From contig PCYE01000017.1 of the NCBI GenBank assembly GCA_002762865.1, positions 1-52,405 on the forward strand: a DNA stretch of 52,405 nucleotides. The letters are read 5' to 3'. A model generated the notes under the pieces. The model was not told the origin of the DNA, did not search any database, and saw nothing but the letters and a program-made list of their open reading frames with translations. Every line of letters begins with the position of its first letter. Position 1 is the stretch's first letter. The DNA comes from Candidatus Woesearchaeota archaeon CG10_big_fil_rev_8_21_14_0_10_33_12 (GTDB taxonomy: Archaea > Nanobdellota > Nanobdellia > Woesearchaeales > CG1-02-33-12). The position numbers were made by a program, and so were the translations under genes. This document shows positions 3,501 through 25,079 of this stretch, in pieces.

Positions 3501-3528
3501 TGAGTTATGTTGATAATAAACATAAACC

Positions 3529-6967: not shown

Positions 6968-6977
6968 ACAATTAAAA

Positions 6978-9900
6978 ATGAAAAAGGCAAAAAAAGAAAT
7001 AAATAAGAAACAGTTGAAGTCAATAGTAACTCTGTTTTTAGTACTTAGTGTTATATATTCTGTTGCCCTAACAAACCAAAGAGGGGTTGAACCCTTTATA
7101 CAAGGGATTAGCAAGGGCACAAATAACCTTATTAATTTTGTCCGAAACCCAAGCATAACTGGCTTTGCTACAATCTTTGCCAACAACCAACCATATTTTG
7201 ACCCAAGTCCCCCTGATTATAACCTTACAGAAGATGTGCTCTTTGAGGTTCAGTTAAATGCAACTGACCCAGATAATGATACAATTATCTTTACAGATAA
7301 TTCTGATGCGCCTGAAGTTAACTGGTTAGTATTTAGTATGAATGGCACTGGCTTTATTTCTTTCACACCAACAAATGATGATGTTGGTGGTCATACAGTA
7401 GGAATTAGTATTGAGGATAGCATTAATGATCCTGTAACAGAGAATGTTATTTTCAGTGTGATTAATGTTAATGATCCACCACATATAGTAAACTGGACAC
7501 CAGTAAGCCTGACTCCAGGGACAACAGAAAACAACAGCATTGGTTTCTCATTTGAGTATAATGCAACAGATCCAGACTTGCCATATGGTGATATTTTAAT
7601 TACAAGATGGATTGTTGATGGAGTTATTGATTCAATAACAGTTAATGAAACCAGCGGCTCTTGGAGCTTTACAACAGGATTTTGCGAGCCCCGCAATAGA
7701 AATATAACCCTTGAAGTAAGTGATACATCAAATGAGACAGATATTGTAACATGGAATCTAAGCATAACCAATGTCAATAGAGAGCCGGCATGGAATGGAA
7801 CAATCAATAATATACTTTGGGAGGAAGATAATAATTTAATAAATAATATAAGCCTAGACAATTATTTCTATGACTCTGATTATAGCGAGTGTGGTGATAA
7901 TCCAAGCTTTTCATCAACAGGCAACACAAACATAACAATAAGCATAGACTCATCAACACCACATAGTGTAAGCTTTTATCCTGACTCAGACTGGTTTGGT
8001 ACAGAAGAAGTATTTTTCACAATAGATGATAGCTATGCAACAGCAGATAGCAACAATTTAACATTAAATGTTACTAATGTTCAGGATCCTCCAGAAATAG
8101 AGTTAATACCAGACCAACAAGCATATACCTATGTTTTGTTTAGTTATCAGGTAAATGCATCTGACACTGATAATGATATATTAACATATTATGATAACAC
8201 AACCTTGTTTAACATTAGCTCAATAACAGGGCTTATTAGCTTTACTCCAACAGCTGATAATATTGGCAATTACTCAATAAATATAACAGTAGGTGATGAA
8301 ATAGATAATGCATCTACATTAATGAGTCTTTCAATTCTTAATAATACTGTTCCAGTAATTGATCCAATAGCTAACCAGAATGTTGAAGAGAACACCTTAT
8401 TTGAATTAACAGTAAATGGATCTGATGCTGATGGGGATATCCTTGCATTCTCAAGCAATTATAGCAAAATGCTGAATCCTATATGGAGCAATGCAACATC
8501 TGCAAAATTCAGCTTTACTCCTCTTGACGGAGATAATGGAAACCATACAATACTTGTCACAGTAACTGATGCAAGAGGTGCAACAGATTCAACAACCTTT
8601 GTACTTGAGGTAATAGATGTCAATAACCCTCCTGTGCTTGATCCAATAGGAAACAGGATAGCAAAAATAAACCATACATTCAGCTTAAAAGCAAATGCAT
8701 CTGATCCTGACAATGGTGATACATTAATGTTTAGTAATAATGATACTGCCCTTTTTACAATACATTGGTCAACAGGCATGATTGGGTTTACCCCAGATGA
8801 TGGTGATGAAGGAAACCATTCAGTAAATATTTCAGTAACAGATGATGCAACAATACCAAAAATAGATTATGAAGTTGTGATATTTGAAGTCACAAAAAAT
8901 AGGGCTCCTGTAATTGACCCTATAGGTAACCAAACTGCAACAGAAGACTCAGAATTCAATCTAACAGTAACAGCATCTGACCTTGATGAAGATCCCTTAA
9001 TATTTAGTGACAATGCTTCTTTTTTTGATATTAATTCTTCAACAGGATTTATCAGCTTTATACCAAATGCAAGCCAGGTTGGTGTTTATCAGATACAAAT
9101 CAATGCAACAGATAGTGACAACGCAACAGGAACAGCAACTTTCTGGCTGAATATCAGCGAGGTAAATGATGCCCCTTATTTTTATCCTGCTCTTGCAAAT
9201 CAGACAGCAATAGAAGGAATCTTATTTTATTATGATATTAATGCAACAGATGAAGAAGGTGATACATTAACTTTCAGCAACAATAACACAGCCTTGTTTA
9301 CTATTGATCCTAATACAGGAGTTATATCTTTTACCCCAACAAATGATGATGTTGGGAATTATTCAATAAACATTTCAGTAACTGACAACAATAGCATAGC
9401 AAGCTCTGTTATAATACTCACAATATTAAACATTAACAATGCCCCAAATATAATCTCATACACTCCTGTTAACTTAACACCAAACACAGCAGAGAATTCA
9501 TCATTGCAGTTTAACACAACAGCAGAAGATGAGGATTTAATTCATGGGGATAGTTTAGCATATACATGGTATCTAGATTCTGTTAACCAGTCATCAAACC
9601 ACTCATGGCTTTATGAGCCTGACTTTGCAGCAGCTGGGCAACATAACATAACAGTAATAGTTTCTGATAACTCTAATGAAACAGACAGCGTAACATGGAA
9701 TGCTAGTGTCAGCAATACAAACAGGCTTCCAAGGTTTGGGATAAATACACAAACAACTGAAGCAGATTTCAGCTCTGGAACAAATAGCAACACAAACACA
9801 ACAGTACAGAGTGGAGATGTAATACTAAATAAACAGGATGGAACCAATTATTATGCATCTGGCACATTCACTTCTTCTGCAATAGATCTTTTGGCAGAGG

Positions 9901-11177
9901 GCAATATGAATATAACCTATATCAACTGGACAGCAACGATGCCTGCTGGAACAAATATAACACTACAAACAAGAACATCAGCAACAGAAGCTGGCTTAAC
10001 TAATGCAAGCTGGAGTTCTGTCTATATTAATAATTCATTAGTTGAATCTGAGGATTATCAATATATACAATACAGGGCAAATCTCACAACAACAAACACC
10101 TCTGTAACACCAACCTTGCATGATATAACAATTAATTATGTTATATCTGATTTCACAGGCAATGAAAACACAATATATGTCAATTGGGTAGACCTTGATG
10201 ATTATTTTTATGAAGATGATGCAGATGACACAATAACATATGATGTTAGTGGAAACTTATATATAGATATATCCATAGGAACTACCACCCATCAGGTTAT
10301 GCTCACCCCTGTAAGTGACTGGTATGGCTCAGAAACAATATTCTTTACAATGAATGACAGCTATAATACAACAAGAAGCAATGACATAACATTGACATTT
10401 GTGGAATATGAAGGTATAACACCTGGTGCAACAATAATCTATAGTAGTGGCGGAGGAGGGGGATCATCAACAACAATAATCAAGACAAAAAAAGTGGAAG
10501 TAGAAAAACCATATTCATTTAACTTAATCACTCCGCAAACAATGACTATGTACCAAAATGACACAGTAATTGCACCAATAACCTTAAACAATTATGGGGA
10601 GAATACATTAAATGAAATAAGCCTTAGTGCATCTGTTAACAACACTATTATTAAGTTAAGGTTTACAAAAGACTATTTTGCAACAATAGAAAAAAAGAGC
10701 TCTGTTGAAACAAGCCTTATCATAGAAGCATATACTGCCCTTGGTTCTTATGAGGTAGTTGTGTTTGCAAATGTAAAAGACCCGGAGTTTAATGATTCTG
10801 CCAAGTTCCTTATGAGCTCTATAGAGCTTGGCCAATGGAGCCAAAATGAGTTTGACACAAAAATAGCATTCACAAGGGATTTGCTTGAGGAAAATCCAGA
10901 GTGCCTTGAACTGAATGAACAGCTTATAGAAGCGCAAAGATTAATGGAAAAATCTGATTATAAGAGAGCACAGTTGTTAATACAGTCAGTTGTTGATACC
11001 TGCAAATATTTAATAACCACAAAAGAGCCAATAATAGAAGAACCAACCACTGAGAAACCTATTGGAGAAAGAACAAAGATTATTGCAGCAGGCATAGGGA
11101 TATTGTTTATTATAATATTGCTTCTTTATTTAATTGCTCGTAGTGGACCAAAGAGAAGTCATAGAAGAGTGCATTAA
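6978..11177 (+). CDS. 1399-aa giant surface adhesin with cadherin-like / He_PIG-type repeats and C-terminal TM anchor
   Basis: N-terminal helix followed by NPSITGFA. At least 8 repeats of about 95-100 aa (about 7179-9720) with the pattern N(D/N)(P/A)P..(D)PI.NQ...E...F.L.V.A.D.D.D.L.FS.N...F.I...TG.ISFTP....GN..I.I.V.D. GGGGGSS linker. CARDB-like module. Terminal helix IIAAGIGILFIIILLLYLIA plus RSGPKRSHRRVH. Dozens of N-x-S/T sequons. Confidence 0.85.
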   Translation: MKKAKKEINKKQLKSIVTLFLVLSVIYSVALTNQRGVEPFIQGISKGTNNLINFVRNPSITGFATIFANNQPYFDPSPPDYNLTEDVLFEVQLNATDPDNDTIIFTDNSDAPEVNWLVFSMNGTGFISFTPTNDDVGGHTVGISIEDSINDPVTENVIFSVINVNDPPHIVNWTPVSLTPGTTENNSIGFSFEYNATDPDLPYGDILITRWIVDGVIDSITVNETSGSWSFTTGFCEPRNRNITLEVSDTSNETDIVTWNLSITNVNREPAWNGTINNILWEEDNNLINNISLDNYFYDSDYSECGDNPSFSSTGNTNITISIDSSTPHSVSFYPDSDWFGTEEVFFTIDDSYATADSNNLTLNVTNVQDPPEIELIPDQQAYTYVLFSYQVNASDTDNDILTYYDNTTLFNISSITGLISFTPTADNIGNYSINITVGDEIDNASTLMSLSILNNTVPVIDPIANQNVEENTLFELTVNGSDADGDILAFSSNYSKMLNPIWSNATSAKFSFTPLDGDNGNHTILVTVTDARGATDSTTFVLEVIDVNNPPVLDPIGNRIAKINHTFSLKANASDPDNGDTLMFSNNDTALFTIHWSTGMIGFTPDDGDEGNHSVNISVTDDATIPKIDYEVVIFEVTKNRAPVIDPIGNQTATEDSEFNLTVTASDLDEDPLIFSDNASFFDINSSTGFISFIPNASQVGVYQIQINATDSDNATGTATFWLNISEVNDAPYFYPALANQTAIEGILFYYDINATDEEGDTLTFSNNNTALFTIDPNTGVISFTPTNDDVGNYSINISVTDNNSIASSVIILTILNINNAPNIISYTPVNLTPNTAENSSLQFNTTAEDEDLIHGDSLAYTWYLDSVNQSSNHSWLYEPDFAAAGQHNITVIVSDNSNETDSVTWNASVSNTNRLPRFGINTQTTEADFSSGTNSNTNTTVQSGDVILNKQDGTNYYASGTFTSSAIDLLAEGNMNITYINWTATMPAGTNITLQTRTSATEAGLTNASWSSVYINNSLVESEDYQYIQYRANLTTTNTSVTPTLHDITINYVISDFTGNENTIYVNWVDLDDYFYEDDADDTITYDVSGNLYIDISIGTTTHQVMLTPVSDWYGSETIFFTMNDSYNTTRSNDITLTFVEYEGITPGATIIYSSGGGGGSSTTIIKTKKVEVEKPYSFNLITPQTMTMYQNDTVIAPITLNNYGENTLNEISLSASVNNTIIKLRFTKDYFATIEKKSSVETSLIIEAYTALGSYEVVVFANVKDPEFNDSAKFLMSSIELGQWSQNEFDTKIAFTRDLLEENPECLELNEQLIEAQRLMEKSDYKRAQLLIQSVVDTCKYLITTKEPIIEEPTTEKPIGERTKIIAAGIGILFIIILLLYLIARSGPKRSHRRVH

Positions 11178-11899
11178 TCCTTATTAGCAGAAACAATCTC
11201 TGTATACAAGAGGAGGATATCATCATAAACATCTTTTTTATCTTCAACATCTAACTGGTTGTATTTTTCTTTAATCTTTACATACAGCTGCTTGCTCTTT
11301 TGGATTTTATTGTTATCAAGCATATCCAATGCCTTGATGAGCATTCCATGCACTTGCTCTAATTTGCTTTTTCCAAAATGTATTTTAAGTTTTGAGAGTA
11401 TAGGCTGTATTAAGATTAATAAAATATTTTGTTTCTTCCCAGATTCTTTTTTTTGCATTGCTGGTTTATTAATTCTAAGGAATTTTAGTATTTTATCAAG
11501 CCTTGTCTCTTTAACTTTCTGTTCATTAAATGTCAATTTTTCAAATAATTTTAAAAATTCATTTAATAATTTCTTTAACTCTGAATCAGGCAATCTTTCA
11601 TCGCTATATTCAACAACAGACAATTTTTTTAAGAAAAAAATTATTTTTTCTTTCAAATTTTTGTCTATCCTTCTTCTCTCTAACTCATTGCCTAACTCCT
11701 CAAATGTAAATTCATACTTAATCTTGAATAATTCAGCAAAAAAAAGCCTTATAACATGAAAAAATTGTATAAAATTGTCATCTTTATTTTTTTTAGAAAA
11801 ATGTTTTCTGAATGCCCCTATTCTTTTAAGAGTATTATTTTTTACTAGTTCAAGCCTGTCAGGTTTCTTTTTTTTTCTCTTGAAAAGATTTAAATACAT
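11174..11899 (-). CDS. soluble 241-aa protein paralogous to the cytoplasmic tail of the 960-aa adhesin (possible DUF4129-like helical domain)
   Basis: Colinear similarity to residues about 745-950 of ORF 4085..6967: LFKRKKKKPDRLEL vs LFKRKKKIVPEEL; FFAELFKIKYEFTFEELGNELERRRI vs FLNELLKIDYEFTYEEFCKEIEKHKI; LYVKIKEKYNQLDVEDKKDVYDDILLLY vs AYLRIKELYEELPVNKKRKIYKKIAGLY. TTTATATA on the minus strand (11925-11932) lies 25 nt upstream of the ATG. Confidence 0.7.
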   Translation of the reverse strand: MYLNLFKRKKKKPDRLELVKNNTLKRIGAFRKHFSKKNKDDNFIQFFHVIRLFFAELFKIKYEFTFEELGNELERRRIDKNLKEKIIFFLKKLSVVEYSDERLPDSELKKLLNEFLKLFEKLTFNEQKVKETRLDKILKFLRINKPAMQKKESGKKQNILLILIQPILSKLKIHFGKSKLEQVHGMLIKALDMLDNNKIQKSKQLYVKIKEKYNQLDVEDKKDVYDDILLLYTEIVSANKD

Positions 11900-11973
11900 C
11901 TTAGTTTAGATTATTAAATATTCATATATAAATCTATCGTGTAATATTTTACTCTTTTTAAGTAGAACAACAA

Positions 11974-11983
11974 AATATAAATA
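11974..11983 (+). promoter_or_regulatory. TATA-like box (AATATAAATA) for the moxR operon, leaderless geometry
   Basis: Centre lies about 28 nt upstream of ATG 12006. No SD sequence in between. Confidence 0.4.
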
Positions 11984-12005
11984 TTAGGAATTGCTTGATT
12001 AATGT

Positions 12006-12992
12006 ATGGATGAGAAAAAGTTTGCTGAAAAAATAATCAATAACCAGAAACTTATTGATAAAATAAAGAAAGAAATCTCAAATGTAGTTGTTGGCCAAGA
12101 AAAAGTGATTAATGGATTCTTAAGAGCTCTGTTATCAGATGGCCATGTGCTTGTAGAGGGCGTTCCTGGGCTTGCTAAAACACTTATTGTAAGGACATTA
12201 TCTAGTGTTATGGGCTGTGACTTTAGCAGGATTCAGTTCACTCCAGACCTTTTACCAACAGATATAATAGGTATAACAGCTTATGAAAGGGAAAAGGGTT
12301 TTTATGTTCTTAAGGGGCCAATATTCAGCAATTTTATTCTTGCTGATGAGATAAACAGGGCTCCTCCAAAAGTGCAGTCTGCCTTGCTTGAATGCATGCA
12401 GGAAAAACAGGTAACTATTGGGAAAGAAACATTTAATATGCCCCCACCTTTTTTTGTTCTTGCAACACAAAATCCATTGGAGCAGATAGGTGTTTATCCA
12501 CTGCCAGAGGCACAGATTGACAGGTTCTTGTTCAAGATTAACATAAGCTACCCAAACATTAAGGAAGAACAAATTATACTTAATAACAATATAACAATAA
12601 AGAAGTTTGATGATTTCAACTTAAAATCAATGGTATCTCCTGAAAAAATCTTGGAATTGCAGGCAGATGTAAAAAAGATTTACCTCGACAAGAAGATTGA
12701 AAAGTATATTATCCAGATAGTTGATGCAACAAGGAATCCTGATAAGTACAAGATTAAGCTAGGACATTATATAGAATGGGGTGCTTCCCCAAGGGCATCC
12801 ATTGGACTGTTTATTGCATCAAAGGCAGAGGCATTAATGCAGGGAAAAACATTTGTAACACCTCAATATGTAAAAGAGGTTGCATATGATGTTCTAAGGC
12901 ACAGGATTAGTTTAAATTATGAAGCGCAGTCAGAGAACATAAAGATTGAAGATGTAATCTCAGAGATTCTAGCAAGAGTGCCTGTTCCATAA
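12006..12992 (+). CDS. MoxR-family AAA+ ATPase
   Basis: Walker A GVPGLAKT and Walker B ILADEINRAPPKVQSALLECMQE. The FTPDLLPTDIIG and ATQNP...PEAQ(I)DRF motifs are characteristic of MoxR/COG0714. Confidence 0.9.
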   Translation: MDEKKFAEKIINNQKLIDKIKKEISNVVVGQEKVINGFLRALLSDGHVLVEGVPGLAKTLIVRTLSSVMGCDFSRIQFTPDLLPTDIIGITAYEREKGFYVLKGPIFSNFILADEINRAPPKVQSALLECMQEKQVTIGKETFNMPPPFFVLATQNPLEQIGVYPLPEAQIDRFLFKINISYPNIKEEQIILNNNITIKKFDDFNLKSMVSPEKILELQADVKKIYLDKKIEKYIIQIVDATRNPDKYKIKLGHYIEWGASPRASIGLFIASKAEALMQGKTFVTPQYVKEVAYDVLRHRISLNYEAQSENIKIEDVISEILARVPVP

Positions 12993-13006
12993 ATTATATT
13001 TAAAAA

Positions 13007-13894
13007 ATGGAAGAATTAAAGCTAAACTTAAAACCCCTTATTAAAAGATTGGAAGTACATACTAAAAGAGGGCTTACAAGCACTTTAACAGGCTCTTATA
13101 AAAGCACATTTAAAGGCAAGGGTCTTGACTTTGTAGGATACAGACCTTATGATATTGGTGATGACGCTAATATGATTGACTGGAAAGCAACCTTGAGGTC
13201 ACAGGATTTATTAGTTAAGATTCTTGTGGAGGAAAGGAATGTTAATATTGTCTTTTTAGTTGATGTTAGTTCAAGCATGTCTTTTGCATCCATTGATAAG
13301 CTGAAAAATGAGTATGCAGCAGAGCTTGTTGCCTCGTTGAGTTTTGCAGCTATACAGGCAGGTGATTCAGTTGGTTTGGTTATGTTTAATGATAAGATAG
13401 TCAAATTCCTTCCTCCAAATATGGGCAATAAGCAATATTTCATGATAATAAACTCATTGTCTAACCCAAAACTCTATGACGGAAAATTTGATTTTATAAA
13501 GGTGATAAATGATTTGATAAATTCTTTCAAAAAAGGGGCAATAATTGTTATTGTATCGGACTTTATTGGGCTTGGTAAAGATTGGGAAAATTATTTAAGA
13601 GCTGTATCTGAAAAATTTGAAGTAATTGGCATAATGGTTAGAGATCCTAGAGATTATGAAATACCAGCAGATGTTGGCCAGATTGTTATTTCAGACCCTT
13701 ATTCTGACAAAGAGGTATTGATAGATACAGCAAAAATAAAAGATGAATATGAATCTGTTGTTAAAGAGCAAATAAAACATATAAAAGAGACTTTTATAAA
13801 TTCAAAATCAGATTTTTTAGAGTTAAGAACAGATAAGCCTTTCCTAGATTATATAATAAAATTTTTTTTGATGAGGAATAAGAGGCGAATATGA
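13007..13894 (+). CDS. DUF58 family protein (vWA-like, MoxR partner)
   Basis: YRPYDIGDDANMIDWKATLRSQDLLVK signature, then VFLVDVSSSM (MIDAS-like). Lies directly downstream of moxR, the canonical gene order. Confidence 0.85.
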   Translation: MEELKLNLKPLIKRLEVHTKRGLTSTLTGSYKSTFKGKGLDFVGYRPYDIGDDANMIDWKATLRSQDLLVKILVEERNVNIVFLVDVSSSMSFASIDKLKNEYAAELVASLSFAAIQAGDSVGLVMFNDKIVKFLPPNMGNKQYFMIINSLSNPKLYDGKFDFIKVINDLINSFKKGAIIVIVSDFIGLGKDWENYLRAVSEKFEVIGIMVRDPRDYEIPADVGQIVISDPYSDKEVLIDTAKIKDEYESVVKEQIKHIKETFINSKSDFLELRTDKPFLDYIIKFFLMRNKRRI

Positions 13895-14847
13895 TTACAA
13901 TAAACTTTACTAACATTTATTACCTCTGGCTTTTGGTAAGCATACCTCTGCTTATTATAACCCACTTCTTTGTTTTAGGTTACCTTAAGAGAAGGGCAGT
14001 AAAGTTTGCTAATTTTGAAGCTATAAAAAGGGTTACCGGAACAAAATTTGATATAAAAAATACAAGAACAATATCAAAAAATATGTTTTTATTGATTGTA
14101 AGAATTTTTGTTTTATTGCTCCTTATATTCTCTGTAGCAGGCCCTGTCCTGTGGTACAGCGGCCAGGGCAGTGAGTTTGATTTTGTCCTTGCTATAGATG
14201 CTTCAAGTTCAATGTTGGCAGATGATTTTATACCGTACAGGCTTGATGCTGCGAGAAAGGCTTCTTCATTGTTTGTTGAAAGCTTAAAAGCAAGAACAAT
14301 GGTAGGCATTGTTTCTTTTGCAGGAACAAGCTTTGTTGAGCAGGATTTAATAGATAATATGAAAAAGACAGAAGAGGTTATTAATAATATAAGAATTAAG
14401 AGTGTTGGAGGAACTGATATAGGGGGTGCAATAACAACTTCAACAAACCTTTTGTTAAATCAGGAAAACTCAAGGGTTATTATCCTGCTGACAGATGGGC
14501 AGAGTACTGTTGGAACACCTCTCGATGTGGCTATTGAATATGCAAACAAAAATTATGTAACAATTAACACTATAGGCATTGGTACAGAAGAAGGGGGGAC
14601 ATTCATAAAAGGTGACTTGCTTTCAAAACTTGATGAGCCAACATTGATTGAAATAGCTCAAAAAACCGGAGGGAAATACTATAAGGCTGAGAATGAGGAA
14701 GAATTAGCCAATGCTTTTGATGATATCTCCTCCTCTACAGAAGAAAAAATACCTATAGACTTATCAATGGGTTTTATGATGACTGCCCTGGCACTATTGT
14801 TTCTTGAGTGGGGCATGATAAATACAAAATACAGAACATTGCCATAG
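13891..14847 (+). CDS. BatA-like membrane-anchored von Willebrand factor A protein
   Basis: 4-nt start/stop overlap with the DUF58 gene. Two N-terminal TM helices and one C-terminal TM helix. MIDAS motif LAIDASSSM plus GGTDIG and LLTDGQ. Confidence 0.85.
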   Translation: MITINFTNIYYLWLLVSIPLLIITHFFVLGYLKRRAVKFANFEAIKRVTGTKFDIKNTRTISKNMFLLIVRIFVLLLLIFSVAGPVLWYSGQGSEFDFVLAIDASSSMLADDFIPYRLDAARKASSLFVESLKARTMVGIVSFAGTSFVEQDLIDNMKKTEEVINNIRIKSVGGTDIGGAITTSTNLLLNQENSRVIILLTDGQSTVGTPLDVAIEYANKNYVTINTIGIGTEEGGTFIKGDLLSKLDEPTLIEIAQKTGGKYYKAENEEELANAFDDISSSTEEKIPIDLSMGFMMTALALLFLEWGMINTKYRTLP

Positions 14848-17082: not shown

Positions 17083-17442
17083 ATGGGTTCTAAAAAAGAG
17101 GAATTGGATTTTGAAAAAGAAGAAATGATGGATAGGTTTCAAATACTCCCTAAACGAAGACTTGCTGAAGTTGAAAAACAATTAATATTTATCCTTATTG
17201 AAAAATCAAAGATTCAAAGGGAACGCTCTATGGCTCTTCTCAATAAAGGGTTCTTGATTTTCATCACATTTATAATAATTACTTATTTAAGCAAAACCAA
17301 CAACATATTGCCTCAAATTTATATCAATATCCTCTTTATTTTTGGCATAATTGTATTGATTGCAGTTGTTGTAACTTACCAAAATACGCTATCCAAAGAG
17401 GAGAAAACTTTGGATAACCTCTTAAATAGTTTTTTAAAATAA
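17083..17442 (+). CDS. small two-TM membrane protein (119 aa)
   Basis: Charged N-terminus, then two hydrophobic helices (FLIFITFIIITYL and INILFIFGIIVLIAVVV). Its stop is 1 nt before the start of the KaiC-like gene. Confidence 0.55.
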   Translation: MGSKKEELDFEKEEMMDRFQILPKRRLAEVEKQLIFILIEKSKIQRERSMALLNKGFLIFITFIIITYLSKTNNILPQIYINILFIFGIIVLIAVVVTYQNTLSKEEKTLDNLLNSFLK

Positions 17443-17443
17443 A

Positions 17444-18136
17444 ATGGTGAAAAGAATAAAGACAGGAATACCTGGATTGGATAAAGTAATGGAGGGTGGA
17501 TTAGTTGATAATTCAGTAAACCTTCTTTCCGGGGGTACAGGTACAGGAAAAAGTATTTTTAGTTTGCAGTTCTTATTCAACGGAGCAAAGCAGTTCAATG
17601 AAAAGGGATTGTACATCTCATTGGAAGAACCAGAGGAGAGTCTTAAAGCAGATGTTGAAAAACTTGGTATGGATTTCAAAAAAGTTTCTAAGAATGTCAA
17701 ATTTATGTACATGCCTCCTTATGGGATAACTAATTTCTTAGATCCTCTTAGGGAACAGATAGAAAAATTTAAACCAGATAGGATTGTTATTGATTCTTTA
17801 ACAGCCCTTGTAATGCCACTGGAAGATGACTTTGAAAGAAAAAAAGAAATTGTTAATATTATTAAACTTCTAAAAAGGTTGAAATGCACTTCAATATTAG
17901 TATCAGAGATACCAAGCAATGGAAACATTGATTCTGATTCTGTTGGAGGATTTTCAAGGTTTGGTATAGAGGAATTTTTGTGTGATAGTCTCATAATATT
18001 ACACTATGCTGGAATAGGTGGTGAATCAGATAGAGCAATAAGAATCATAAAAATGAGACAAACAAACCATGTTAGGGGACCTATTCCAATGTCTATTGGA
18101 AAGTCAGGTATAAGTGTTCTAAAAACAAAGTATTAA
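17444..18136 (+). CDS. single-domain KaiC/RecA-superfamily ATPase (COG0467-like)
   Basis: GIPGLDKVMEGGL, Walker A SGGTGTGKS, Walker B PDRIVIDSL, and C-terminal IIKMRQTNH, all typical of archaeal KaiC-like proteins. Confidence 0.8.
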   Translation: MVKRIKTGIPGLDKVMEGGLVDNSVNLLSGGTGTGKSIFSLQFLFNGAKQFNEKGLYISLEEPEESLKADVEKLGMDFKKVSKNVKFMYMPPYGITNFLDPLREQIEKFKPDRIVIDSLTALVMPLEDDFERKKEIVNIIKLLKRLKCTSILVSEIPSNGNIDSDSVGGFSRFGIEEFLCDSLIILHYAGIGGESDRAIRIIKMRQTNHVRGPIPMSIGKSGISVLKTKY

Positions 18137-18262
18137 AATTCAAGTTCTATTATTTAAAATTCATCATTAAAGGATTTTTCTGTAATATCTTTCTTAAATT
18201 TTTAATATGTTGTAAAAAATATGAAGATTAATTAAAACATGTTGGAAAAAATAAAGAAACCT

Positions 18263-18270
18263 TTTTATAT
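18263..18270 (+). promoter_or_regulatory. TATA box (TTTTATAT) for the V4R-FIST-LuxE-LuxC string, leaderless geometry
   Basis: Centre lies about 25 nt upstream of ATG 18292. No SD sequence in between. Confidence 0.4.
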
Positions 18271-18291: not shown

Positions 18292-18762
18292 ATGCTCTCC
18301 ACATTTTTGAAAAAATTGCTTTTTGTAAGGCAATTTTTCATGACAGACGGAAAAATAGAGATACTCGGAAAAAGGCAGGTGATGTTACCACAAGAGATTG
18401 TATCTGATTTAGAGAGAGTTAGCCCAAAGACAGAGTATAAATTCCTAAAAAAGATTTTTATGGAAAGCGTTAAGGATTATGCAAAAAAAATTGGGAGCGG
18501 GGAGGAAGGAATGTTCAAAAATGTGACTGATATTTTTGAAACATTTGGATTGGGCAGGATGGAAGTAGTGAATAATGATAACAAAAAGAAGACGTGTATC
18601 ATAAGGGTTTATGATTGCCCCCTTGTAAAAGAGATAGGTAAATCACAGATACTTACAGCAGCAATGTCAGGAATGTTTTCATTTTTGTTTAACAAAGATG
18701 TTGATGCAAAGCAATTAGCATCTAAGCAAGAGTTTGATTATTACGAGTTTGTTATAAAATAA
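18292..18762 (+). CDS. V4R-domain (4-vinyl reductase-like, COG1719-type) small-molecule-binding protein
   Basis: 156 aa. C-terminal pattern GLGRMEVV...CIIRVYDCPL...TAAMSGMFSFLF resembles V4R domains. The assignment is by eye only. Confidence 0.45.
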   Translation: MLSTFLKKLLFVRQFFMTDGKIEILGKRQVMLPQEIVSDLERVSPKTEYKFLKKIFMESVKDYAKKIGSGEEGMFKNVTDIFETFGLGRMEVVNNDNKKKTCIIRVYDCPLVKEIGKSQILTAAMSGMFSFLFNKDVDAKQLASKQEFDYYEFVIK

Positions 18763-18779
18763 AAAAGAGGCGAGGCAAA

Positions 18780-20159
18780 ATGGAAAAAAAGAATGTTTAT
18801 GCTGGAACAGGGATAAGCCGGGATGATGACCCATACAAGGCAGGAAAGGAAGCTGTTGAGATGGCAATAGAGAAAGCAGGCAAATCTCCTGAGTTTGGTG
18901 TTGTGTTTTGCTCTGGCGGAAAATACGGAAATAATGATAAAAGAATAAAAAAACTTGTCGAGGGAGCACATGATGCTTTTATGGCTGCAAACAAGAACTG
19001 CAAATGGATTGGCTGCACAACAGCAGGTGAAATAAGCAATTATGGGTTCTCAACAGATTCTTGTGTTGCTATGATTATTAATTCTCAATATATTCATTTT
19101 GGTGTAGGTGTTGGAAAAAACATAAACCTTAGGCCTAAGGAAGCTGGCCAGAGAGCTATTAAGGATGCTCTTAAGAATATAAAAACAGATAAATATATCG
19201 AACCATATGTAAGATACCTTGCAGAAAAAAAATTGCCTAACTCAGAATTAATCCAAATGAGGCCCTATTCAGTTATGATGTTAAACACAGGCTTCACAGC
19301 AAAAAAAAGAGGGAATGAAGACGATATTATTGAGGGAATAGTAAATATTATAGGATATAGAATTCCCATTATTGGAGGCAGTTCTGGAGATGATTTTAAC
19401 TTAAAGAAGACTTATTCTTTTCTCAATGGCTTAGTTTATGAAGATAGTGTTATCTGCACAATCATCAGCAGCAGCATAAAAATAGGCAGTTATGTTAGCC
19501 ATGGGTACCTCCCGACTGAGAAATCTGTTTTTATTAATAAAGCACAAGATTATACAGTTTATGAAATGGATAAAAAAAATGCTTTTGATCGCTATTCTGA
19601 GGTTATTGGGAAAACTAAAGAGAATATATGGCCCAAAACAATGAAACTCCAAAAACTAGGAAGTATCTCTACAGCGTTTATGTCTTTTGCAAAAAAACTT
19701 GGAATAGATGTTATGAAATTATCACCTGTGATAGGACTTAACTGCAATTCCCCTCTAGCCCTAGTCGAATATAAACCATATGTAAAGGGAAGATTCTGGA
19801 TTAAGGCAATAGATTCTGTTATTGACAATAAATATTTGAGGTTTACTGAAAAGGTCCCACAAGAAAATGTCTTATACCTCATGAAAACAAATAAGGAAAA
19901 ATCTTTGAATGCAGGACCTGAATCTGTAATAGGGAGCTTGAAACAAGTGGACAACGAGGCTTCATTTTCACTGATTTTTGACTGTGCCCTTCACAGATGG
20001 TTCATAGGAAAACATGCTGCAAAAAGTGTTGAATTAATTAAGAAGAACCTGAAAAATATTCCTTTTGTAGGGTTCTTCGGATATGGTGAAATATTAGATG
20101 GCAAGCATACTCTTAGTGTTGTTTCAATGGTTGCAGGTAAAAAATTAATAAGCGATTGA
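18780..20159 (+). CDS. FIST-domain sensor protein (FIST_N + FIST_C)
   Basis: Motifs PEFGVVFCSG, GCTTAGEIS and IIGGSSGDD, with a C-terminal GFFGYGEI, match the FIST N/C architecture. GAGGCGAGG SD upstream. Confidence 0.7.
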   Translation: MEKKNVYAGTGISRDDDPYKAGKEAVEMAIEKAGKSPEFGVVFCSGGKYGNNDKRIKKLVEGAHDAFMAANKNCKWIGCTTAGEISNYGFSTDSCVAMIINSQYIHFGVGVGKNINLRPKEAGQRAIKDALKNIKTDKYIEPYVRYLAEKKLPNSELIQMRPYSVMMLNTGFTAKKRGNEDDIIEGIVNIIGYRIPIIGGSSGDDFNLKKTYSFLNGLVYEDSVICTIISSSIKIGSYVSHGYLPTEKSVFINKAQDYTVYEMDKKNAFDRYSEVIGKTKENIWPKTMKLQKLGSISTAFMSFAKKLGIDVMKLSPVIGLNCNSPLALVEYKPYVKGRFWIKAIDSVIDNKYLRFTEKVPQENVLYLMKTNKEKSLNAGPESVIGSLKQVDNEASFSLIFDCALHRWFIGKHAAKSVELIKKNLKNIPFVGFFGYGEILDGKHTLSVVSMVAGKKLISD

Positions 20160-20223
20160 ATATCATTTTCAAAAAAGTGAAAAAAAGAGGTGAAAAACAA
20201 AGAAGGTTATGGAGGAGTAAAAA

Positions 20224-21411
20224 ATGAATAACAAAAATTTGATGGATTATGAAAGTATAGAAAAAATTTTGGGTTTTGAAGACCCCTTCAACATAGAGCC
20301 CTCAATCTCTAGAGAGTTAAGGTTTAAGTCCTTAAAAGCAAGTTTTGAGCACCATTACCTTAACAACAAGGTTTATAAGGGATTTTGTGAGTTAGCAAAT
20401 GTTTCACCAGCAGATATTAAGAATTATGAAGATTTAGTCTTAATTCCTCTTGTTCCCTCTGATTTTTTTAGGGACGTGTCAGCAACAGGCCGCCATGAAG
20501 ATTTAGTGCATATATCCAGTGTTCCTGATGAGCAAATAGCCAGGTATTTTACAACAAGCGGAACTGGAGGGCAACCAAGTATTTATCCTTATGATGGAAG
20601 AAGTCTTGGAACAATAAACAGATCGAATGCAATTATTTTTAAAAAGGTAGGTGGCCTAAAATCAGATGATTACATGTTATTTTTAACTCCCTCTACAGAT
20701 AAGGCTGATACAGGGATGGTTCAAGGGATGTACTTGACAATGAAAGGGATTTTTAAAGACACAGATTCTCAATTAGATTTTGCCATCCAAGATAATATTT
20801 TTGATACTAAGTCTATTGTTAATAAACTGACAAAAGCTAAGGGCAGAACAAGGCACCTTTACGGACCGCCATATGCTTATAACCAACTATGTGAGCAGAT
20901 GTCTAATCTCGGATTGGAAATGAGGCTTGATCCTGAAAGCAAAGCAATCACCACAGGCGGTTGGAAATCATTTAAAGACGAAGCAATCAGCCCTTCAGAA
21001 CTGAAAGAAAAAATCCAAAAGGCATTTGGCATTGCTCCGCAGGAAATTAGAGATGGCCTTGGATTAACAGATATAATGTCTATACTAGTTGAATGCCAAT
21101 ATGGAAATAAACATGTTCCACCATGGATAGAGGTTTCTATAAGAGATTTAAATGATCCTAGTTGGAAGACAGATGTTGCTATTGGAAAGGACGGTTTAAT
21201 AGCATTTTTAGACCCATTAATATCATCCTTCCCAGCATATATTGTTACTGGAGATGTAGGAAAGCTGACTATTAGTCAAGATGAAAAATGCAGCTGTGGT
21301 AGATATGGTGCAACTATTGAATATGTTCGAAGAGCAGGTGACCCAAGGGGCTGTGCTCTCAGACAGGAACAACTTATGACTGAAGTTGAATCAAAGAGAA
21401 AAACTAAGTAA
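20224..21411 (+). CDS. LuxE-like acyl-protein synthetase / adenylate-forming enzyme
   Basis: GGAGGAG SD upstream. N-terminal FEHHYLNNKVYKGFCEL...DLVLIPLVPSDFF, nucleotide-binding TTSGTGGQPS, and the length (395 aa) fit the LuxE family. A PaaK-like ligase is the alternative. Confidence 0.65.
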   Translation: MNNKNLMDYESIEKILGFEDPFNIEPSISRELRFKSLKASFEHHYLNNKVYKGFCELANVSPADIKNYEDLVLIPLVPSDFFRDVSATGRHEDLVHISSVPDEQIARYFTTSGTGGQPSIYPYDGRSLGTINRSNAIIFKKVGGLKSDDYMLFLTPSTDKADTGMVQGMYLTMKGIFKDTDSQLDFAIQDNIFDTKSIVNKLTKAKGRTRHLYGPPYAYNQLCEQMSNLGLEMRLDPESKAITTGGWKSFKDEAISPSELKEKIQKAFGIAPQEIRDGLGLTDIMSILVECQYGNKHVPPWIEVSIRDLNDPSWKTDVAIGKDGLIAFLDPLISSFPAYIVTGDVGKLTISQDEKCSCGRYGATIEYVRRAGDPRGCALRQEQLMTEVESKRKTK

Positions 21412-21452
21412 TTTTTATTTATTTGGTTATATTTCAGAGAGACAATCCAAAA

Positions 21453-22784
21453 ATGAAAAACAATACACTGGTTAATGGTTATTACATAAATAGCATTTCT
21501 GATACTGAAATAGAATTAGAAACTAAATTAGTTGAGAATTCTCTGGGAAAAGTCAAAGTTAAAATGCCAAAATTAAATTCTGAAACTCTTGAATGTGTTT
21601 TAAGCAATTTAAGGCTGTCCAAAGAGAGTTTAGCATCCAAAACAGACAAAGAACTTCTAAATCTATTTAACACAAACTTAGGATTATGGTTAGATAAGAA
21701 TTATGGGCCCAGAAAATGTGCTCAGGATATCCTGCCTATAACCCTCGGATATTCCCCGCAAATGGTTGAAACTACTCTAAATGGAATATTTAGTATATTA
21801 AAAAAGGATTTAAATGATTTGAAAAAAACATGGGACTCAAAGGAGCTTGCAGTTGTAGTATACCCTAATATCCCCGGGCCCCAAGTAATTACAGTATTAC
21901 ACTCATTGTTTAATAGAACACCTATATTTTGCAAATCCCCATATGAGGAACCTATTTTTAGTGCTTTATACGCTAAGTCATTAGAAGATGTTGACAAACA
22001 ACTAGCAAAATCAGTATCAGCAGTTCCTTGGGAAGGAGGTGATAAGGAGAACGCAAGTCTTGAAAAGATTCTTTATAGTGGGCTTGGAAAGAGGGATGCA
22101 GTGGTTGTATTTGGTTCATCTAAGACTGCTTCAAAAATTGATTCTCTAAAAAACAAGGAATCAGAATTGATTCAATATAGCAAAGGAATAGGAATTATCA
22201 TTATTGGGAAAGAGTATTTATCAAAAGAAAATATTGATACTACAGCCAATAATTGTGCATTTAATATATCTATGTACAATAGGAATGCCTGCTTCTCTCC
22301 ACAGGGAGTTTTAGCAGAAAGAGGGGGGGAATTTGCTCCGGAAGATTTTGCAAGTTTATTAAGTATTAAAATGACCCAGATTGCTCAACATATATTGCCA
22401 GTAGGTGATTTTTCTGGTGATGATTATGCAAGATTTGCCCAGACTCACAGGTCTGCAGAGCTAAAGAGGATATCTGGTTTTGTGGATTATTTTTCTGTTA
22501 CTGATGAGAACAAAAGAATTGTTGGAGGGGTAATATACCAAAAGAAAGGAAATTTTGAGTTGCCTCGAAGCGGGCAGAGAGTTGTAACTGTTACTCCATT
22601 CAAAGAAATTAGTGATGTAAAAACAATTCTTTCAGAATATATAGAAAACATACATACAATTGGGTTAGGAATGGATAATAAAAAGTATAAAAAATATGAC
22701 TTATTGTTTAAGGAATCAGGAGTAAGGGTAAGTCCCTTAAATGATATGCTTAAGATATCAATCAGGGATTATAAATTTGTTTAA
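21453..22784 (+). CDS. LuxC-like acyl-CoA (acyl-protein) reductase, ALDH-fold
   Basis: Size and position next to the LuxE-like gene. Candidate catalytic-Cys segment MYNRNACFSPQGV. I prefer ATG 21453 over the track's TTG at 21423. Confidence 0.6.
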   Translation: MKNNTLVNGYYINSISDTEIELETKLVENSLGKVKVKMPKLNSETLECVLSNLRLSKESLASKTDKELLNLFNTNLGLWLDKNYGPRKCAQDILPITLGYSPQMVETTLNGIFSILKKDLNDLKKTWDSKELAVVVYPNIPGPQVITVLHSLFNRTPIFCKSPYEEPIFSALYAKSLEDVDKQLAKSVSAVPWEGGDKENASLEKILYSGLGKRDAVVVFGSSKTASKIDSLKNKESELIQYSKGIGIIIIGKEYLSKENIDTTANNCAFNISMYNRNACFSPQGVLAERGGEFAPEDFASLLSIKMTQIAQHILPVGDFSGDDYARFAQTHRSAELKRISGFVDYFSVTDENKRIVGGVIYQKKGNFELPRSGQRVVTVTPFKEISDVKTILSEYIENIHTIGLGMDNKKYKKYDLLFKESGVRVSPLNDMLKISIRDYKFV

Positions 22785-22869: not shown

Positions 22870-23328
22870 ATGAAAACAAAACATATCTTTGTGCCAGTAT
22901 TAGACATTGGAGAGCTCTTGCCATTTGTTATCAAGAAAAAAGGAAAATTGCAGGAGAACATAAAGGAGCAGGAAAGAGCCAGGGCTGAGCTTGTTAAATT
23001 CATTGATGAGCTTGAGAAAAATTATAAGGAATCAATATACTATATGGGCATGGACATTATTGAATCAAAAACATATGAAAGGTTCATATTTGAAAATGGC
23101 GGGTTTTTTGAAGTAATGACTGAATCTCCCTTGGCTATGAATGCACATTTTGTGGATGAAAAAAAGGCAAAAAAGTTTTGTTTGACATTAAAAAAAACCA
23201 TTAAACTAATTCTAAAAGGAAATCCTATGTCAAAAATGTTCTTGGATTCCATAGAAGTACAAACTGAGGCAGACCAAAGCTTAACCTATGAAAAATGGGA
23301 CAGAATGAAAAGCATTAACAGCCCTTAA
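22870..23328 (+). CDS. hypothetical protein (152 aa)
   Basis: Clean ORF with an ATG start. No recognisable motifs. Confidence 0.45.
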   Translation: MKTKHIFVPVLDIGELLPFVIKKKGKLQENIKEQERARAELVKFIDELEKNYKESIYYMGMDIIESKTYERFIFENGGFFEVMTESPLAMNAHFVDEKKAKKFCLTLKKTIKLILKGNPMSKMFLDSIEVQTEADQSLTYEKWDRMKSINSP

Positions 23329-23368: not shown

Positions 23369-23632
23369 ATGGACAAGCTAAGAGGCAAAAAATTAAACAG
23401 TGAAGTATACAAGATAATCAAGAAAAGCTGGCCAATACACCCTTCTGAGGTATGCAGAAAGCTTAATATAGAACCAAATGTGTCCAACATTTCTAAAATA
23501 AAGTATCATTTTGACATCCTAAGAAAAAACAAAAAGATAAGGACAACAAAAATAGATAGGGCCTTGGTTGGGTGGCCTGTTGAAATAGAAAGATTAAGAA
23601 TATTGCATGAATTCATAGAAGGTATGGATTAG
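23369..23632 (+). CDS. small winged-helix DNA-binding protein (87 aa)
   Basis: The pattern YKIIKKSWPIHPSEVCRKLNIEPNVSNISKIKYHFDILRKNKKI looks like a wHTH (helix-turn-helix plus basic wing). Confidence 0.45.
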   Translation: MDKLRGKKLNSEVYKIIKKSWPIHPSEVCRKLNIEPNVSNISKIKYHFDILRKNKKIRTTKIDRALVGWPVEIERLRILHEFIEGMD

Positions 23633-23872: not shown

Positions 23873-24379
23873 TTAACGAACACCCTTAATTAAGTAGTCA
23901 ATAGAGATTTTTGGAGAAAGATAAGAACTTCTTTTAAATGCTCTCTTTGAACCAAAGGATTCATAAAATCCTGCTATAAAATCAATATAGTGTTTTTCTA
24001 TATCAACATTAAAGAGATGGTTACTAGAATCCCTCATGCTGGTTTTCCCATTAAAGATTTGGTGTTTTACAATAAAATCATGGTCTACTTCCCAAAGATA
24101 TTTCTTTTTAAATTTTTCATTTAGGTATTTAACTACATCTTCAGCGGGCATTCCAAACAGATTCCTCGAAGGAATAATACCAAAAGATGAAGCATAAATA
24201 GCTCCTCCTAGAAAGGTATCTAAATCACTATCAAATCCCCCGTAAAGTTTAACATTTATTCCATTCATAATATCTCTTTTTCTTAACTCTTCTAGGATTT
24301 TAATGGCAGCATTATAACCTATTATCTCCTCTTTTATTTTTTCAGATCCATAAAATTTGTTAATAAATTCTCTTAGCAT
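23873..24379 (-). CDS. hypothetical protein (168 aa), co-oriented with the small-protein paralogs
   Basis: AAGGGGGG SD and TTTAAA spacer precede the ATG, the same context as the neighbouring paralogs. No recognisable domain. Confidence 0.5.
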   Translation of the reverse strand: MLREFINKFYGSEKIKEEIIGYNAAIKILEELRKRDIMNGINVKLYGGFDSDLDTFLGGAIYASSFGIIPSRNLFGMPAEDVVKYLNEKFKKKYLWEVDHDFIVKHQIFNGKTSMRDSSNHLFNVDIEKHYIDFIAGFYESFGSKRAFKRSSYLSPKISIDYLIKGVR

Positions 24380-24426: not shown

Positions 24427-24735
24427 TTATAAGTAATCTTCCAGCTTGGTTGGCTGTTTATGATCAGGAAATTTTTCTGCTATAACTTCTATTGCCAGAT
24501 TTCTTGCTAAATTTCTCATTCCCAAATTTATATATTCTTCAGCAGCTTCTCCTCCACTGACTACTGGAGAAAGAATTGAATGTATAATACCTAAGGGATT
24601 AAAAGCACCAGGGTACTTATACTCTTTAGATGGGCATATAGCAATATCATATACTTGCTCATAAGTGCATTTTTCTAGTTGAGTTCTAATTTGTTTTCCT
24701 ATTGATATCTCTCCTAAATTTGGTCCTGAACTCAT
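24427..24735 (-). CDS. small protein, paralog A (102 aa), unknown family
   Basis: Full-length similarity to ORF 24780..25079: SGPNLGEIS/SGLDLEEIL, GGEAAEEY/GEEAAEEY, AIEVIAEKFPDHKQPTKLEDYL/AIKVIAEKYPNLKQPTQLENYL. AGAGGGA SD upstream. Confidence 0.6.
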   Translation of the reverse strand: MSSGPNLGEISIGKQIRTQLEKCTYEQVYDIAICPSKEYKYPGAFNPLGIIHSILSPVVSGGEAAEEYINLGMRNLARNLAIEVIAEKFPDHKQPTKLEDYL

Positions 24736-24779: not shown

Positions 24780-25079
24780 TTATAAGTAATTTTCCAGTTG
24801 AGTTGGCTGTTTAAGATTGGGATATTTTTCTGCTATAACCTTTATTGCTAAAGTGCTCATCACCCGAGCATTATATTCTTCAGCAGCTTCTTCTCCGAAG
24901 TTCCGCAGAGAAAATATCTTCACAAAGGAATTAATAACACTTATGCCCTTTGGTTTAGGGTTAGATGTAGCAAGCTTATATAATTTCTCATAATTATATT
25001 TTCTTAACTTAGTTTTAATTTTTTTTCTTCTTAATATCTCTTCTAAATCTAATCCTGAATCACAACAAAATAATATCAT
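24780..25079 (-). CDS. small protein, paralog B (99 aa), unknown family
   Basis: See paralog A. GAGGGG SD lies 6 nt upstream of the ATG. A minus-strand TTTTATATA box lies further upstream. Confidence 0.6.
   Translation of the reverse strand: MILFCCDSGLDLEEILRRKKIKTKLRKYNYEKLYKLATSNPKPKGISVINSFVKIFSLRNFGEEAAEEYNARVMSTLAIKVIAEKYPNLKQPTQLENYL

Follow-up and report, generated by a model that had tools for sequence, protein, structure and literature searches.

In the solved LuxC-LuxE complex of the P. phosphoreum lux operon (7XC6), LuxE hands its acyl group directly to LuxC with no third protein in between, and mutagenesis of LuxE ties Lys238, Arg355 and Cys364 to adenylation and self-acylation (PMC9157457). 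Stand-alone FIST proteins of the NosP type regulate an adjacent kinase in bacteria, and in the FIST domain of human FBXO22, alkyl and aryl aldehydes are bound reversibly by Cys326 as a hemithioacetal, with assistance from Glu362 (PMC12407915). Members of the V4R/TRAPPC3-fold family have an internal cavity that takes up palmitate or phenols, and KaiC-like ATPases have been proposed to serve as hubs of signal transduction in archaea (Makarova, Galperin & Koonin 2017, as cited in PMC5847659). Here, we analyze an archaeal locus in which genes of these families stand side by side. It lies on contig PCYE01000017.1 of Candidatus Woesearchaeota archaeon CG10_big_fil_rev_8_21_14_0_10_33_12, the whole 52,405-nt stretch of which is referred to below as the window. 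An original prediction, made from the letters of this DNA, had described a string of V4R, FIST, LuxE-like and LuxC-like genes as a sensor-coupled acyl activation and reduction module for which no archaeal role had been described. Our results support this description and at the same time show it to be incomplete: the profile searches and the search for co-localization both came out in its favor, and the four genes are part of a conserved module of DPANN archaea with seven families, namely p87, FIST, LuxE, LuxC, p152, V4R and a KaiC-like ATPase.

A conserved module of seven gene families

Beyond the four-gene string, the functional unit takes in a KaiC-like ATPase upstream and p152 and p87 downstream. 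In the window, the features of this region are as follows.

17083-17442, + strand: TM119, 119 aa, with two predicted transmembrane segments (residues 48-66 and 73-91) and a weak DUF2304 match
17444-18136, + strand: single-domain KaiC-like ATPase, 230 aa (PF06745, E=5e-59, 200 bits, cut-off 26.6)
18262-18269, + strand: TTTTTATA box, candidate promoter for a leaderless transcript, its center 26.5 nt 5' of the V4R ATG
18292-18762, + strand: small V4R/Bet3-fold protein, 156 aa, recognized by homologue matches and AlphaFold/Foldseek
18780-20159, + strand: stand-alone FIST_N + FIST_C protein, 459 aa (Pfam PF08495 and PF10442)
20224-21411, + strand: LuxE-type acyl-protein synthetase, 395 aa (Pfam PF04443 and motifs)
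21453-22784, + strand: LuxC-type acyl-thioester reductase of the aldehyde dehydrogenase (ALDH) fold, 443 aa (Pfam PF05893 and motif)
22870-23328, + strand: p152, an orphan 152-aa domain protein and conserved module member
23369-23632, + strand: p87, a small putative DNA-binding protein of winged-helix (ArsR/MarR-like) type, with its own TATA-like box at -31

A LuxE-anchored scan, in which each species was represented by a single genome, yielded 11 loci from archaea and 69 from bacteria. The archaeal loci come from Woese-, Aenigmat- and Micrarchaeota and from unclassified archaea, with LuxE proteins 37-48% and FIST proteins 19-65% identical. FIST was located directly upstream of LuxE-LuxC in 10 of these 11 loci, and a KaiC homologue was adjacent in 8. 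A FIST-anchored metagenome scan, independent of LuxE and restricted to loci with sufficient sequence whose FIST reached 33% identity, showed LuxE in 17/19 loci; loci with distant FISTs had none (0/4). The co-localization of the genes, the absence of which would by the original prediction's own test have counted against it, extends across distant DPANN lineages (Woese-, Aenigmat- and Micrarchaeota). In contrast, hidden Markov models (HMMs) found no FIST, KaiC, V4R, p87, p152 or LuxC within 10 kb in any of the 69 bacterial LuxE loci.

Mapping the module genes with iteratively built HMMs revealed a recurring order, p87-FIST-LuxE-LuxC-p152-V4R followed by KaiC in the opposite orientation, with frequent 4-nt overlaps that include the FIST/LuxE junction. 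The window and one related locus (L010) instead read TM119-KaiC-V4R-FIST-LuxE-LuxC-p152-p87. In Aenigmat- and Micrarchaeota, V4R and p152 give way to an unrelated protein of 122 aa, whose translation is coupled to that of FIST; we considered it as a Roadblock/LC7 protein because of a likeness seen by eye, and dropped this assignment since it had no Pfam, NCBIfam or PDB match. The flanking genes differ between all archaeal lineages, and the module set persists at 19-40% protein identity over three phyla. The shuffled order, the differing flanks, the 4-nt overlaps, the swaps for analogues and the fusions of a helix-turn-helix (HTH) domain to FIST described below all argue that the linkage is functional and not inherited synteny.

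The most constant partner of FIST is an ALDH-fold enzyme (LuxC or Aldedh), not LuxE. Five variant loci fill in the picture. L127 carries KaiC, an HTH::FIST fusion, a divergent LuxE ending in KGCGL, and LuxC; L128 has two KaiC genes, an HTH::FIST fusion and a PF00171 ALDH; L129 consists of p87, FIST, ALDH, p152 and V4R, with LuxE absent; in L112, the LuxC position is held by an ALDH; and in L109, p87 and FIST are followed by a TTGTS-containing protein of no assigned family and by an ALDH-like protein. The 418-aa protein of L109 was tried as a LuxE and rejected, as the HMM does not detect it and the adenylation-like TTGTS motif is its sole likeness. All ALDH-fold partners keep the catalytic Cys but lack ELGG, the general base that marks hydrolytic ALDHs, suggesting thioester chemistry throughout. 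Together, these variants point to an invariant core of winged-helix protein, FIST and ALDH-fold enzyme, in which the HTH::FIST fusions tie FIST to a DNA-binding output. The V4R protein is the least fixed member, since its position varies and it is replaced in Aenigmat- and Micrarchaeota. As a separate observation, the L129 variant sits on a 340-kb contig and is flanked by genes of the type found with ribosomally synthesized and posttranslationally modified peptides, that is, a PqqD/radical-SAM-SPASM pair (2966-5671) and a YcaO/nitroreductase pair (11870-13935).

The string itself consists of four open reading frames (ORFs) in an AT-rich window (GC ~33%). The first three ORFs encode 156, 459 and 395 aa, and the fourth may be read from ATG 21453 (443 aa), the start in public gene calls, or from TTG 21423 (453 aa), where the mechanically called ORF begins, 11 nt past LuxE. 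With the ATG, the spacers of 17, 64 and 41 nt that the original prediction had listed between the four same-strand genes are exactly recovered, and both motifs it had quoted, the adenylation motif TTSGTGGQPS in LuxE and NACFSPQ in LuxC, are found in the translations. Its leaderless-type TATA box is likewise there: the TTTTTATA box at 18262-18269 has a purine-rich stretch upstream and no Shine-Dalgarno (SD) site after it, and is predicted to act as the promoter. The GGAGG-type sites said to precede the internal genes were seen for FIST (GAGGCGAGG) and LuxE (GGAGGAG), but no convincing SD site precedes LuxC.

Given the archaeal host, we counted TATA-like and SD-like signals at gene starts rather than applying a sigma-70 promoter scanner. 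TATA-like boxes at -36 to -22 were present for 18/49 window genes versus 7.5% of random positions, and SD-like or GGAGG-type sites at -17 to -6 for 14/49 versus 6.2%. Because both signals are enriched over random positions, we take them as real classes of gene start in this genome; the V4R gene is in the TATA-box class, and FIST and LuxE are in the SD class. The Pfam families of the 24 genes around the module also bear out the earlier remark that luxA, luxB, luxD and lipid genes are not nearby, and luxA, luxB and luxD are conserved in no related locus examined. The nearest genome is a Ca. Woesearchaeota metagenome-assembled genome (MAG) whose LuxE is 91% identical and whose whole region is syntenic.

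Enzymes, putative sensors and accessory proteins

HMM searches place the two enzymes where the original prediction had put them, in PF04443 and PF05893, and not with PaaK or generic ALDHs. LuxE matches PF04443 with E=2e-37 (129.6 bits, cut-off 24.9), its residues 2-383 covering positions 7-388 of the 391 in the model, and a 37-sequence LuxE profile recovers P. phosphoreum LuxE (PpLuxE; 7xc6_E) over its full length with E=8e-82. Lys248 (in GGWK), Arg370 and Cys377 (in RGCAL) are invariant in the 37 homologues and align to PpLuxE Lys238, Arg355 and Cys364. The acyl-acceptor Cys377 is encoded at nt 21352-21354 and the chain ends 18 residues later, the (K/R)GCxL motif replacing the C-terminal subdomain of ANL enzymes. 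LuxC matches PF05893 with E=1e-35 (123.8 bits, cut-off 21) and 7xc6_A in a phmmer search with E=2e-7, its NACFSPQ falling on QACFSTQ, the site of the acylated cysteine. The catalytic Cys280 within this motif corresponds to nt 22290-22292, and the ELGG general-base motif is absent. By analogy to the solved homologue, whose residues are conserved here, LuxE would acylate itself and LuxC would carry out the reduction. NCBIfam places both enzymes in the same families as Pfam does, yet neither scores as a lux-operon orthologue: LuxE reaches 127.6 bits against the bioluminescence equivalog NF052244 (cut-off 550), marking it as a family member, and LuxC reaches 56.5 bits against NF052251 (cut-off 750).

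Two LuxE loci deserve mention in their own right. In an Aenigmatarchaeota MAG (L019, 1083-2227), LuxE is split into overlapping ORFs of 302 and 104 aa, reflecting either a frameshift, and hence a pseudogene, or an assembly error. The LuxE closest to ours outside the Woesearchaeota population, 64% identical, comes from an 'FCB group bacterium' bin (L006, 9097-11688), in which LuxE and LuxC are separated by an inserted element of IS21 type, with IstB and a Mu-type transposase, and the FIST gene is absent; either the copy is decaying, or the fragment was transferred or mis-binned.

The second gene of the string was rightly called FIST, as both halves score above the gathering cut-off, FIST_N (PF08495) with E=3e-36 and 125.3 bits (cut-off 23.2) and FIST_C (PF10442) with E=8e-19 and 68.5 bits (cut-off 28.5). 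It is far from the NosP equivalog NF041558 (89.9 bits, cut-off 450), and the module lacks HisKA and REC genes. Single-sequence PDB searches returned nothing useful for either V4R or FIST, so that profiles were needed. With a 48-sequence FIST profile, FBXO22 was the sole PDB match (E=4e-4), and the alignment places Cys402 (FDCALHR; nt 19983-19985) on Cys326 and Glu437 (GYGE; nt 20088-20090) on Glu362 in register, as counted along the full-length chain. Both residues are invariant in the LuxE-linked FIST clade. FBXO22 also tops the Foldseek list for the AlphaFold model of the protein (pLDDT 92.7; E=2e-9). Since a FIST protein with an FBXO22-type dyad is cotranslated with a predicted aldehyde-forming pair, the alignment suggests that FIST may capture the product of the enzymes made alongside it. 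After FBXO22, the Foldseek list continues with cyclic amide hydrolases of the Toblerone fold (barbiturase and cyanuric acid hydrolase; E ~6e-6), a model-based hint that the FIST fold may be related to an enzyme fold.

For the first gene, the V4R label stood by an indirect route. The 156-aa protein of the window does not match PF02830; however, 10 of its 33 homologues do (best E=6e-14), and the orthologue in L012 scores 50.4 bits against V4R (cut-off 31). The AlphaFold model (pLDDT 81) shows the two-layer alpha/beta fold of V4R/TRAPPC3 and retrieves the phenol-sensor domains of PoxR/MopR/DmpR, palmitate-bound TRAPPC3/Bet3 and the V4R protein MJ1460 in Foldseek (E=1e-6 to 1e-4, TM-scores of 0.5-0.7). 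A C-terminal Zn-binding Cys cluster is kept in L012, L091, L092, L098, L100, L105 and L108 and is replaced by A, S or Y in the window and L010, such that the pattern 'C-KE-SC-A-G---C-F' of the orthologues contrasts with 'A-KQ-AS-KQEFDYYEF' in the window. Mouse TRAPPC3 likewise has no such cluster. We therefore regard the window protein as a degenerate V4R form, which on the strength of its modeled fold is predicted to bind a hydrophobic ligand.

p152 has no match in Pfam, NCBIfam or PDB by profile search. It is present in at least 12 module loci, and in relatives of the window it is translationally coupled to V4R. An exhaustive search of 1.84e9 proteins yielded a family of 78 representative clusters (proteins P0256-P0333) with three architectures: soluble proteins of ~150 aa; proteins of ~225 aa, 28/30 of which have transmembrane-like segments after the domain; and five giant Cys-rich proteins of 687-1548 aa, one with Ig-like domains, in which the p152 domain forms a cytoplasmic C-terminal tail right after the membrane anchor. 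We also considered whether the ~225-aa relatives are p152::p87 fusions; none of the 78 matches the p87 HMM (0/78), and the extension is a transmembrane segment. p152 thus looks like an undescribed membrane-proximal cytoplasmic domain of DPANN archaea, and its attachment to membrane anchors elsewhere hints at communication between the module and the cell envelope.

The KaiC-like ATPase has an intact Walker A motif (GGTGTGKS), carries IVIDSL as a Walker B-like motif, retains the glutamates of SLEE, and scores under every NCBIfam cut-off for a KaiC subfamily. A KaiC homologue adjoins the FIST-LuxE-LuxC set in ~17 distinct loci, on either side and on either strand. In the window, the stop codon of TM119 lies 1 nt ahead of the KaiC start; TM119 was found only here and in L010 and is therefore a doubtful member of the module; it may be a membrane partner of KaiC specific to this lineage. 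In most relatives p87 opens the module, with FIST immediately after it. The window p87 itself matches no winged-helix family, and members of its family show weak hits to HTH_20, HTH_5, HTH_24, HTH_12 and MarR (E=5e-5 to 3e-2), as well as to the 'putative DNA binding protein' 5duk in PDB (E=0.006). In L127 and L128, an HTH is fused to the N-terminus of FIST. These findings qualify the earlier statement that V4R and FIST have no output domain: it is correct for the stand-alone proteins of the window, but p87 and KaiC would supply the output in trans, and HTH::FIST fusions supply it in cis in some relatives.

Possible functions of the module

We propose, with a probability of about 0.4, that LuxE and LuxC make an aldehyde or thioester which FIST senses, and that the signal passes to the KaiC-like ATPase and the winged-helix protein. 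In such a circuit, LuxE would adenylate a carboxylic acid, probably a hydrophobic or fatty one, delivered by a ligand-binding pair of V4R (and p152), and would load the acyl group as a thioester onto its own Cys377. The acyl group would then pass to Cys280 of LuxC, where reduction with NAD(P)H would release the free aldehyde. Judging from the alignment to FBXO22, Cys402 and Glu437 of FIST might reversibly capture this aldehyde as a hemithioacetal, or the acyl group itself. Ligand-bound FIST would in turn alter the KaiC-like ATPase and p87, and p87 would set transcription; for this last step we draw on gene linkage, the HTH::FIST fusions and the analogy to NosP. The input may be a scavenged lipid or a host-derived acid. 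As a whole, the conserved cluster suggests a cell that makes and senses its own aldehyde signal. A bolder version, in which the FIST_C Cys-Glu dyad is a reversible covalent sensor of aldehydes or acyl groups all the way from DPANN archaea to FBXO22 and the module a self-contained LuxE-LuxC/FIST/KaiC/winged-helix signaling circuit, is tentative and to our mind rather unlikely.

Several points weigh against the sensing circuit. Its substrate, its product and every interaction in it are inferred. Archaeal membranes are not fatty-acid based, which makes a natural substrate hard to name. L128 and L129 have an ALDH without LuxE, hence no obvious source of thioester. The dyad is general in FIST_C, with the Cys present in 42/48 and the Glu in 48/48 sequences of a broad alignment, and two distant FISTs that contain the Cys have no ALDH-fold neighbor; being common and also found away from such enzymes, the dyad is not specific evidence for aldehyde sensing. 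Nor does the FIST_C cysteine predict an ALDH-fold neighbor, as judged from four distant FISTs, the two just mentioned and two Cys-less ones that sit in NosP-type kinase operons (Omnitrophica relatives). Furthermore, the translational coupling of FIST to LuxE and the likeness to the Toblerone fold fit an enzyme subunit or acyl carrier equally well. NosP, the only characterized prokaryotic FIST protein, senses nitric oxide (NO) through haem, and aldehyde capture by FBXO22 came to light through synthetic degraders (PMC12407915). Lastly, our literature search found no paper joining KaiC with FIST or LuxE, but it did not cover the 2017 KaiC-hub paper, so that a prior mention is possible.

The same genes could serve a regulated metabolic pathway, a reading we consider possible if somewhat unlikely. 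LuxE-LuxC would then reduce scavenged fatty or other acids to aldehyde intermediates, for instance on the way to alcohols, for membrane or envelope remodeling in a lipid-auxotrophic DPANN cell, and FIST, V4R, KaiC and p87 would be ordinary regulators sensing substrate or cell state. That no catalytic residue of a true fatty-acid reductase is missing from the two enzymes fits well, as do the palmitate- or phenol-binding habits of V4R-fold proteins, the resemblance of p87, with its own promoter-like box, to a classical small repressor, and the occurrence of p152 on membrane and surface proteins elsewhere. However, the module has no conserved enzyme that would use the aldehyde, be it an alcohol dehydrogenase, aminotransferase, luciferase or decarbonylase; three to four regulatory proteins would be an unusually large number for two enzymes; FIST is not encoded apart from the enzymes but shares translational coupling with them; and L129 drops LuxE yet keeps FIST, ALDH, p152, V4R and p87. 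Alternatively, FIST might be no sensor at all but a catalytic or carrier subunit of the reductase, in which Cys402/Glu437 accepts or delivers the acyl group, either as a substitute for LuxD or as an S-acylated intermediate written by LuxE and reductively erased by LuxC. The outcome would be a three-protein acyl relay or a reversible switch of protein S-acylation. The constant adjacency of FIST and LuxE with its 4-nt overlaps, the absence of luxD, the very definition of LuxE as an acyl-protein synthetase that moves acyl groups between cysteines, the Toblerone-fold likeness (E ~6e-6), and a Cys-Glu pair that would make a plausible nucleophile-base dyad all speak for such a subunit. Bacterial FIST is overwhelmingly a signaling input domain, as in NosP-type operons, the HTH::FIST fusions indicate a sensor, and acyl transfer in the solved complex needs no third protein; on balance, we consider a subunit role unlikely.

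Running the chemistry backward, for aldehyde removal or energy conservation, strikes us as very unlikely. FIST would sense toxic or fermentative aldehydes, the ALDH-fold enzyme would oxidize them to an enzyme thioester, and LuxE in reverse, or other enzymes, would recover energy or release the acid. Variants that have a PF00171 ALDH for LuxC and no LuxE are in line with this, as are the missing hydrolytic ELGG, which makes a thioester the likely product, and the fermentative pta and ackA genes 2.5 kb downstream of the four-gene string in the window. Yet LuxE-type enzymes are known only in the ATP-consuming direction, the pta/ackA adjacency is not conserved in other lineages, and the module contains no gene handling coenzyme A. 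Least of all do we believe in clustering without functional meaning, mere gene order inherited among related genomes, to which we assign practically no weight. Most loci do come from uncultured DPANN archaea of similar sediments and groundwater, and the contigs L001-L005 are near-identical copies; the spread at 19-40% identity over three phyla, with rearrangements, new flanks, fusions and analogous replacements, and the absence of the set from 69/69 bacterial LuxE loci already contradict this explanation. The sensing circuit is the most likely of these readings.

Taken one by one, the parts of the module fall into known families; what appears to be undescribed is how they are combined and conserved across DPANN phyla, along with the p152 domain and the link between FIST and aldehydes. 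Our literature search returned no paper joining FIST with LuxE or LuxC, the Makarova et al. 2017 paper on KaiC hubs being outside its reach, and none joining DPANN or Woesearchaeota with LuxE, LuxC or a fatty-acid reductase. To our knowledge, FIST ligands have been unclear ever since the domain was defined, with haem/NO alone established and for NosP only, and a FIST clade that is nearly always joined to an aldehyde-forming or -handling enzyme and has the Cys/Glu pair of FBXO22 offers a testable ligand hypothesis. DPANN archaea have tiny genomes and depend on their hosts for lipids; an investment of seven genes in acid-to-aldehyde chemistry and signaling suggests an unrecognized way of sensing or processing host-derived compounds. 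Few inputs are known for KaiC-like ATPases, and the module offers a defined one. Were the bolder version true, it would give this FIST clade its first natural ligand class, provide a natural rationale for the aldehyde reactivity of FBXO22, and constitute the first metabolite-signaling pathway described in DPANN archaea. Even as a plain, regulated salvage pathway, the module would give archaea their first assigned carboxylate reductase system of the LuxC/LuxE type.

Neighboring genes and comparison with known systems

Other features of the window lie on both sides of the module.

4085-11177 and 12006-14847, + strand: two very large ORFs (960 and 1399 aa)
23873-24379, - strand: 168-aa ORF, downstream of the following pair on their strand
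24427-24735 and 24780-25079, - strand: two small adjacent paralogous ORFs, 102 and 99 aa
25270-27436, + strand: pta-ackA (phosphotransacetylase and acetate kinase), 1.6 kb past the module

With its Big_9, He_PIG and cadherin-like repeats, the 1399-aa product is presumably a surface adhesin; neither it nor the 960-aa product contains a p152 domain. Both large ORFs are followed by a trio of MoxR AAA+, DUF58 and BatA-VWA genes. The 102- and 99-aa paralogues have in common the C-terminal motif GEEAAEEY...LA..VIAEK(F/Y)P..KQPT.LE.YL, and no Pfam match is recorded for them or for the 168-aa ORF in public gene calls. The pta-ackA pair fits an acetate-forming, fermentative lifestyle, and its position next to the module is not kept in other lineages. 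On the sister contig L002, a radical-SAM gene and a 347-aa gene without a Pfam match are inserted between ackA and the pelota gene.

Among the known systems, the KaiC hubs resemble the module in that the window KaiC is a single-domain protein with intact motifs beside small sensor-type proteins. To the V4R/TRAPPC3/PoxR-MopR-DmpR family, the first gene of the string is linked by a common fold and by sister-locus orthologues that pass the Pfam V4R cut-off; unlike that family, the window copy has no Zn-binding Cys cluster, falls below the Pfam threshold and is paired with the orphan p152. The NosP/NosK/NosR systems of bacteria offer the same arrangement of a stand-alone FIST_N + FIST_C protein without output domain next to a signaling ATPase that it presumably controls. 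The archaeal partners, in contrast, are a KaiC-like ATPase and a winged-helix protein in place of a histidine kinase and response regulator. As ligand we propose not haem/NO but an aldehyde or acyl group that neighboring enzymes would make, and the NosP-type relatives examined have no FIST_C cysteine, unlike the archaeal FIST. FBXO22 provides the only solved FIST structure, onto whose Cys326/Glu362 the archaeal Cys402/Glu437 align exactly (PMC12407915); it differs in being a eukaryotic F-box E3 ligase subunit of ~10% identity, with no aldehyde-producing enzyme genetically linked.

Turning to the enzymes, the nearest non-archaeal relatives are the stand-alone LuxE proteins of Mycobacterium, Streptomyces, Paenibacillus and Chloroflexi, which match PF04443 and are 29-35% identical. 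These differ in that LuxE forms a conserved trio with a class-V aminotransferase and an AMP-binding enzyme resembling fatty-acyl-AMP ligases (FAAL) or DIP2, without LuxC. Having other partners and no LuxC, the bacterial loci are uninformative on the function of the archaeal module. Examples of the trio among loci L021-L089 are L069 (9887-14735) and L057 (9887-14518), and we found no description of it in the literature retrieved.

A further parallel is the LuxC-LuxE pair of the P. phosphoreum lux operon (7XC6; PMC9157457), in which LuxE and LuxC, assigned to the same Pfam families as here, are likewise encoded side by side. The likeness extends to a LuxE without the ANL C-terminal subdomain and with a mobile (K/R)GCxL end, and to the conserved Lys/Arg pair and LuxC Cys. 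Where the two systems part is in setting: the archaeal module has no luxA, luxB or luxD, and so makes no light, and scores far below the NCBI equivalog cut-offs; its host is an archaeon, and its LuxE-LuxC pair is embedded among FIST, V4R, p152, KaiC and winged-helix genes.

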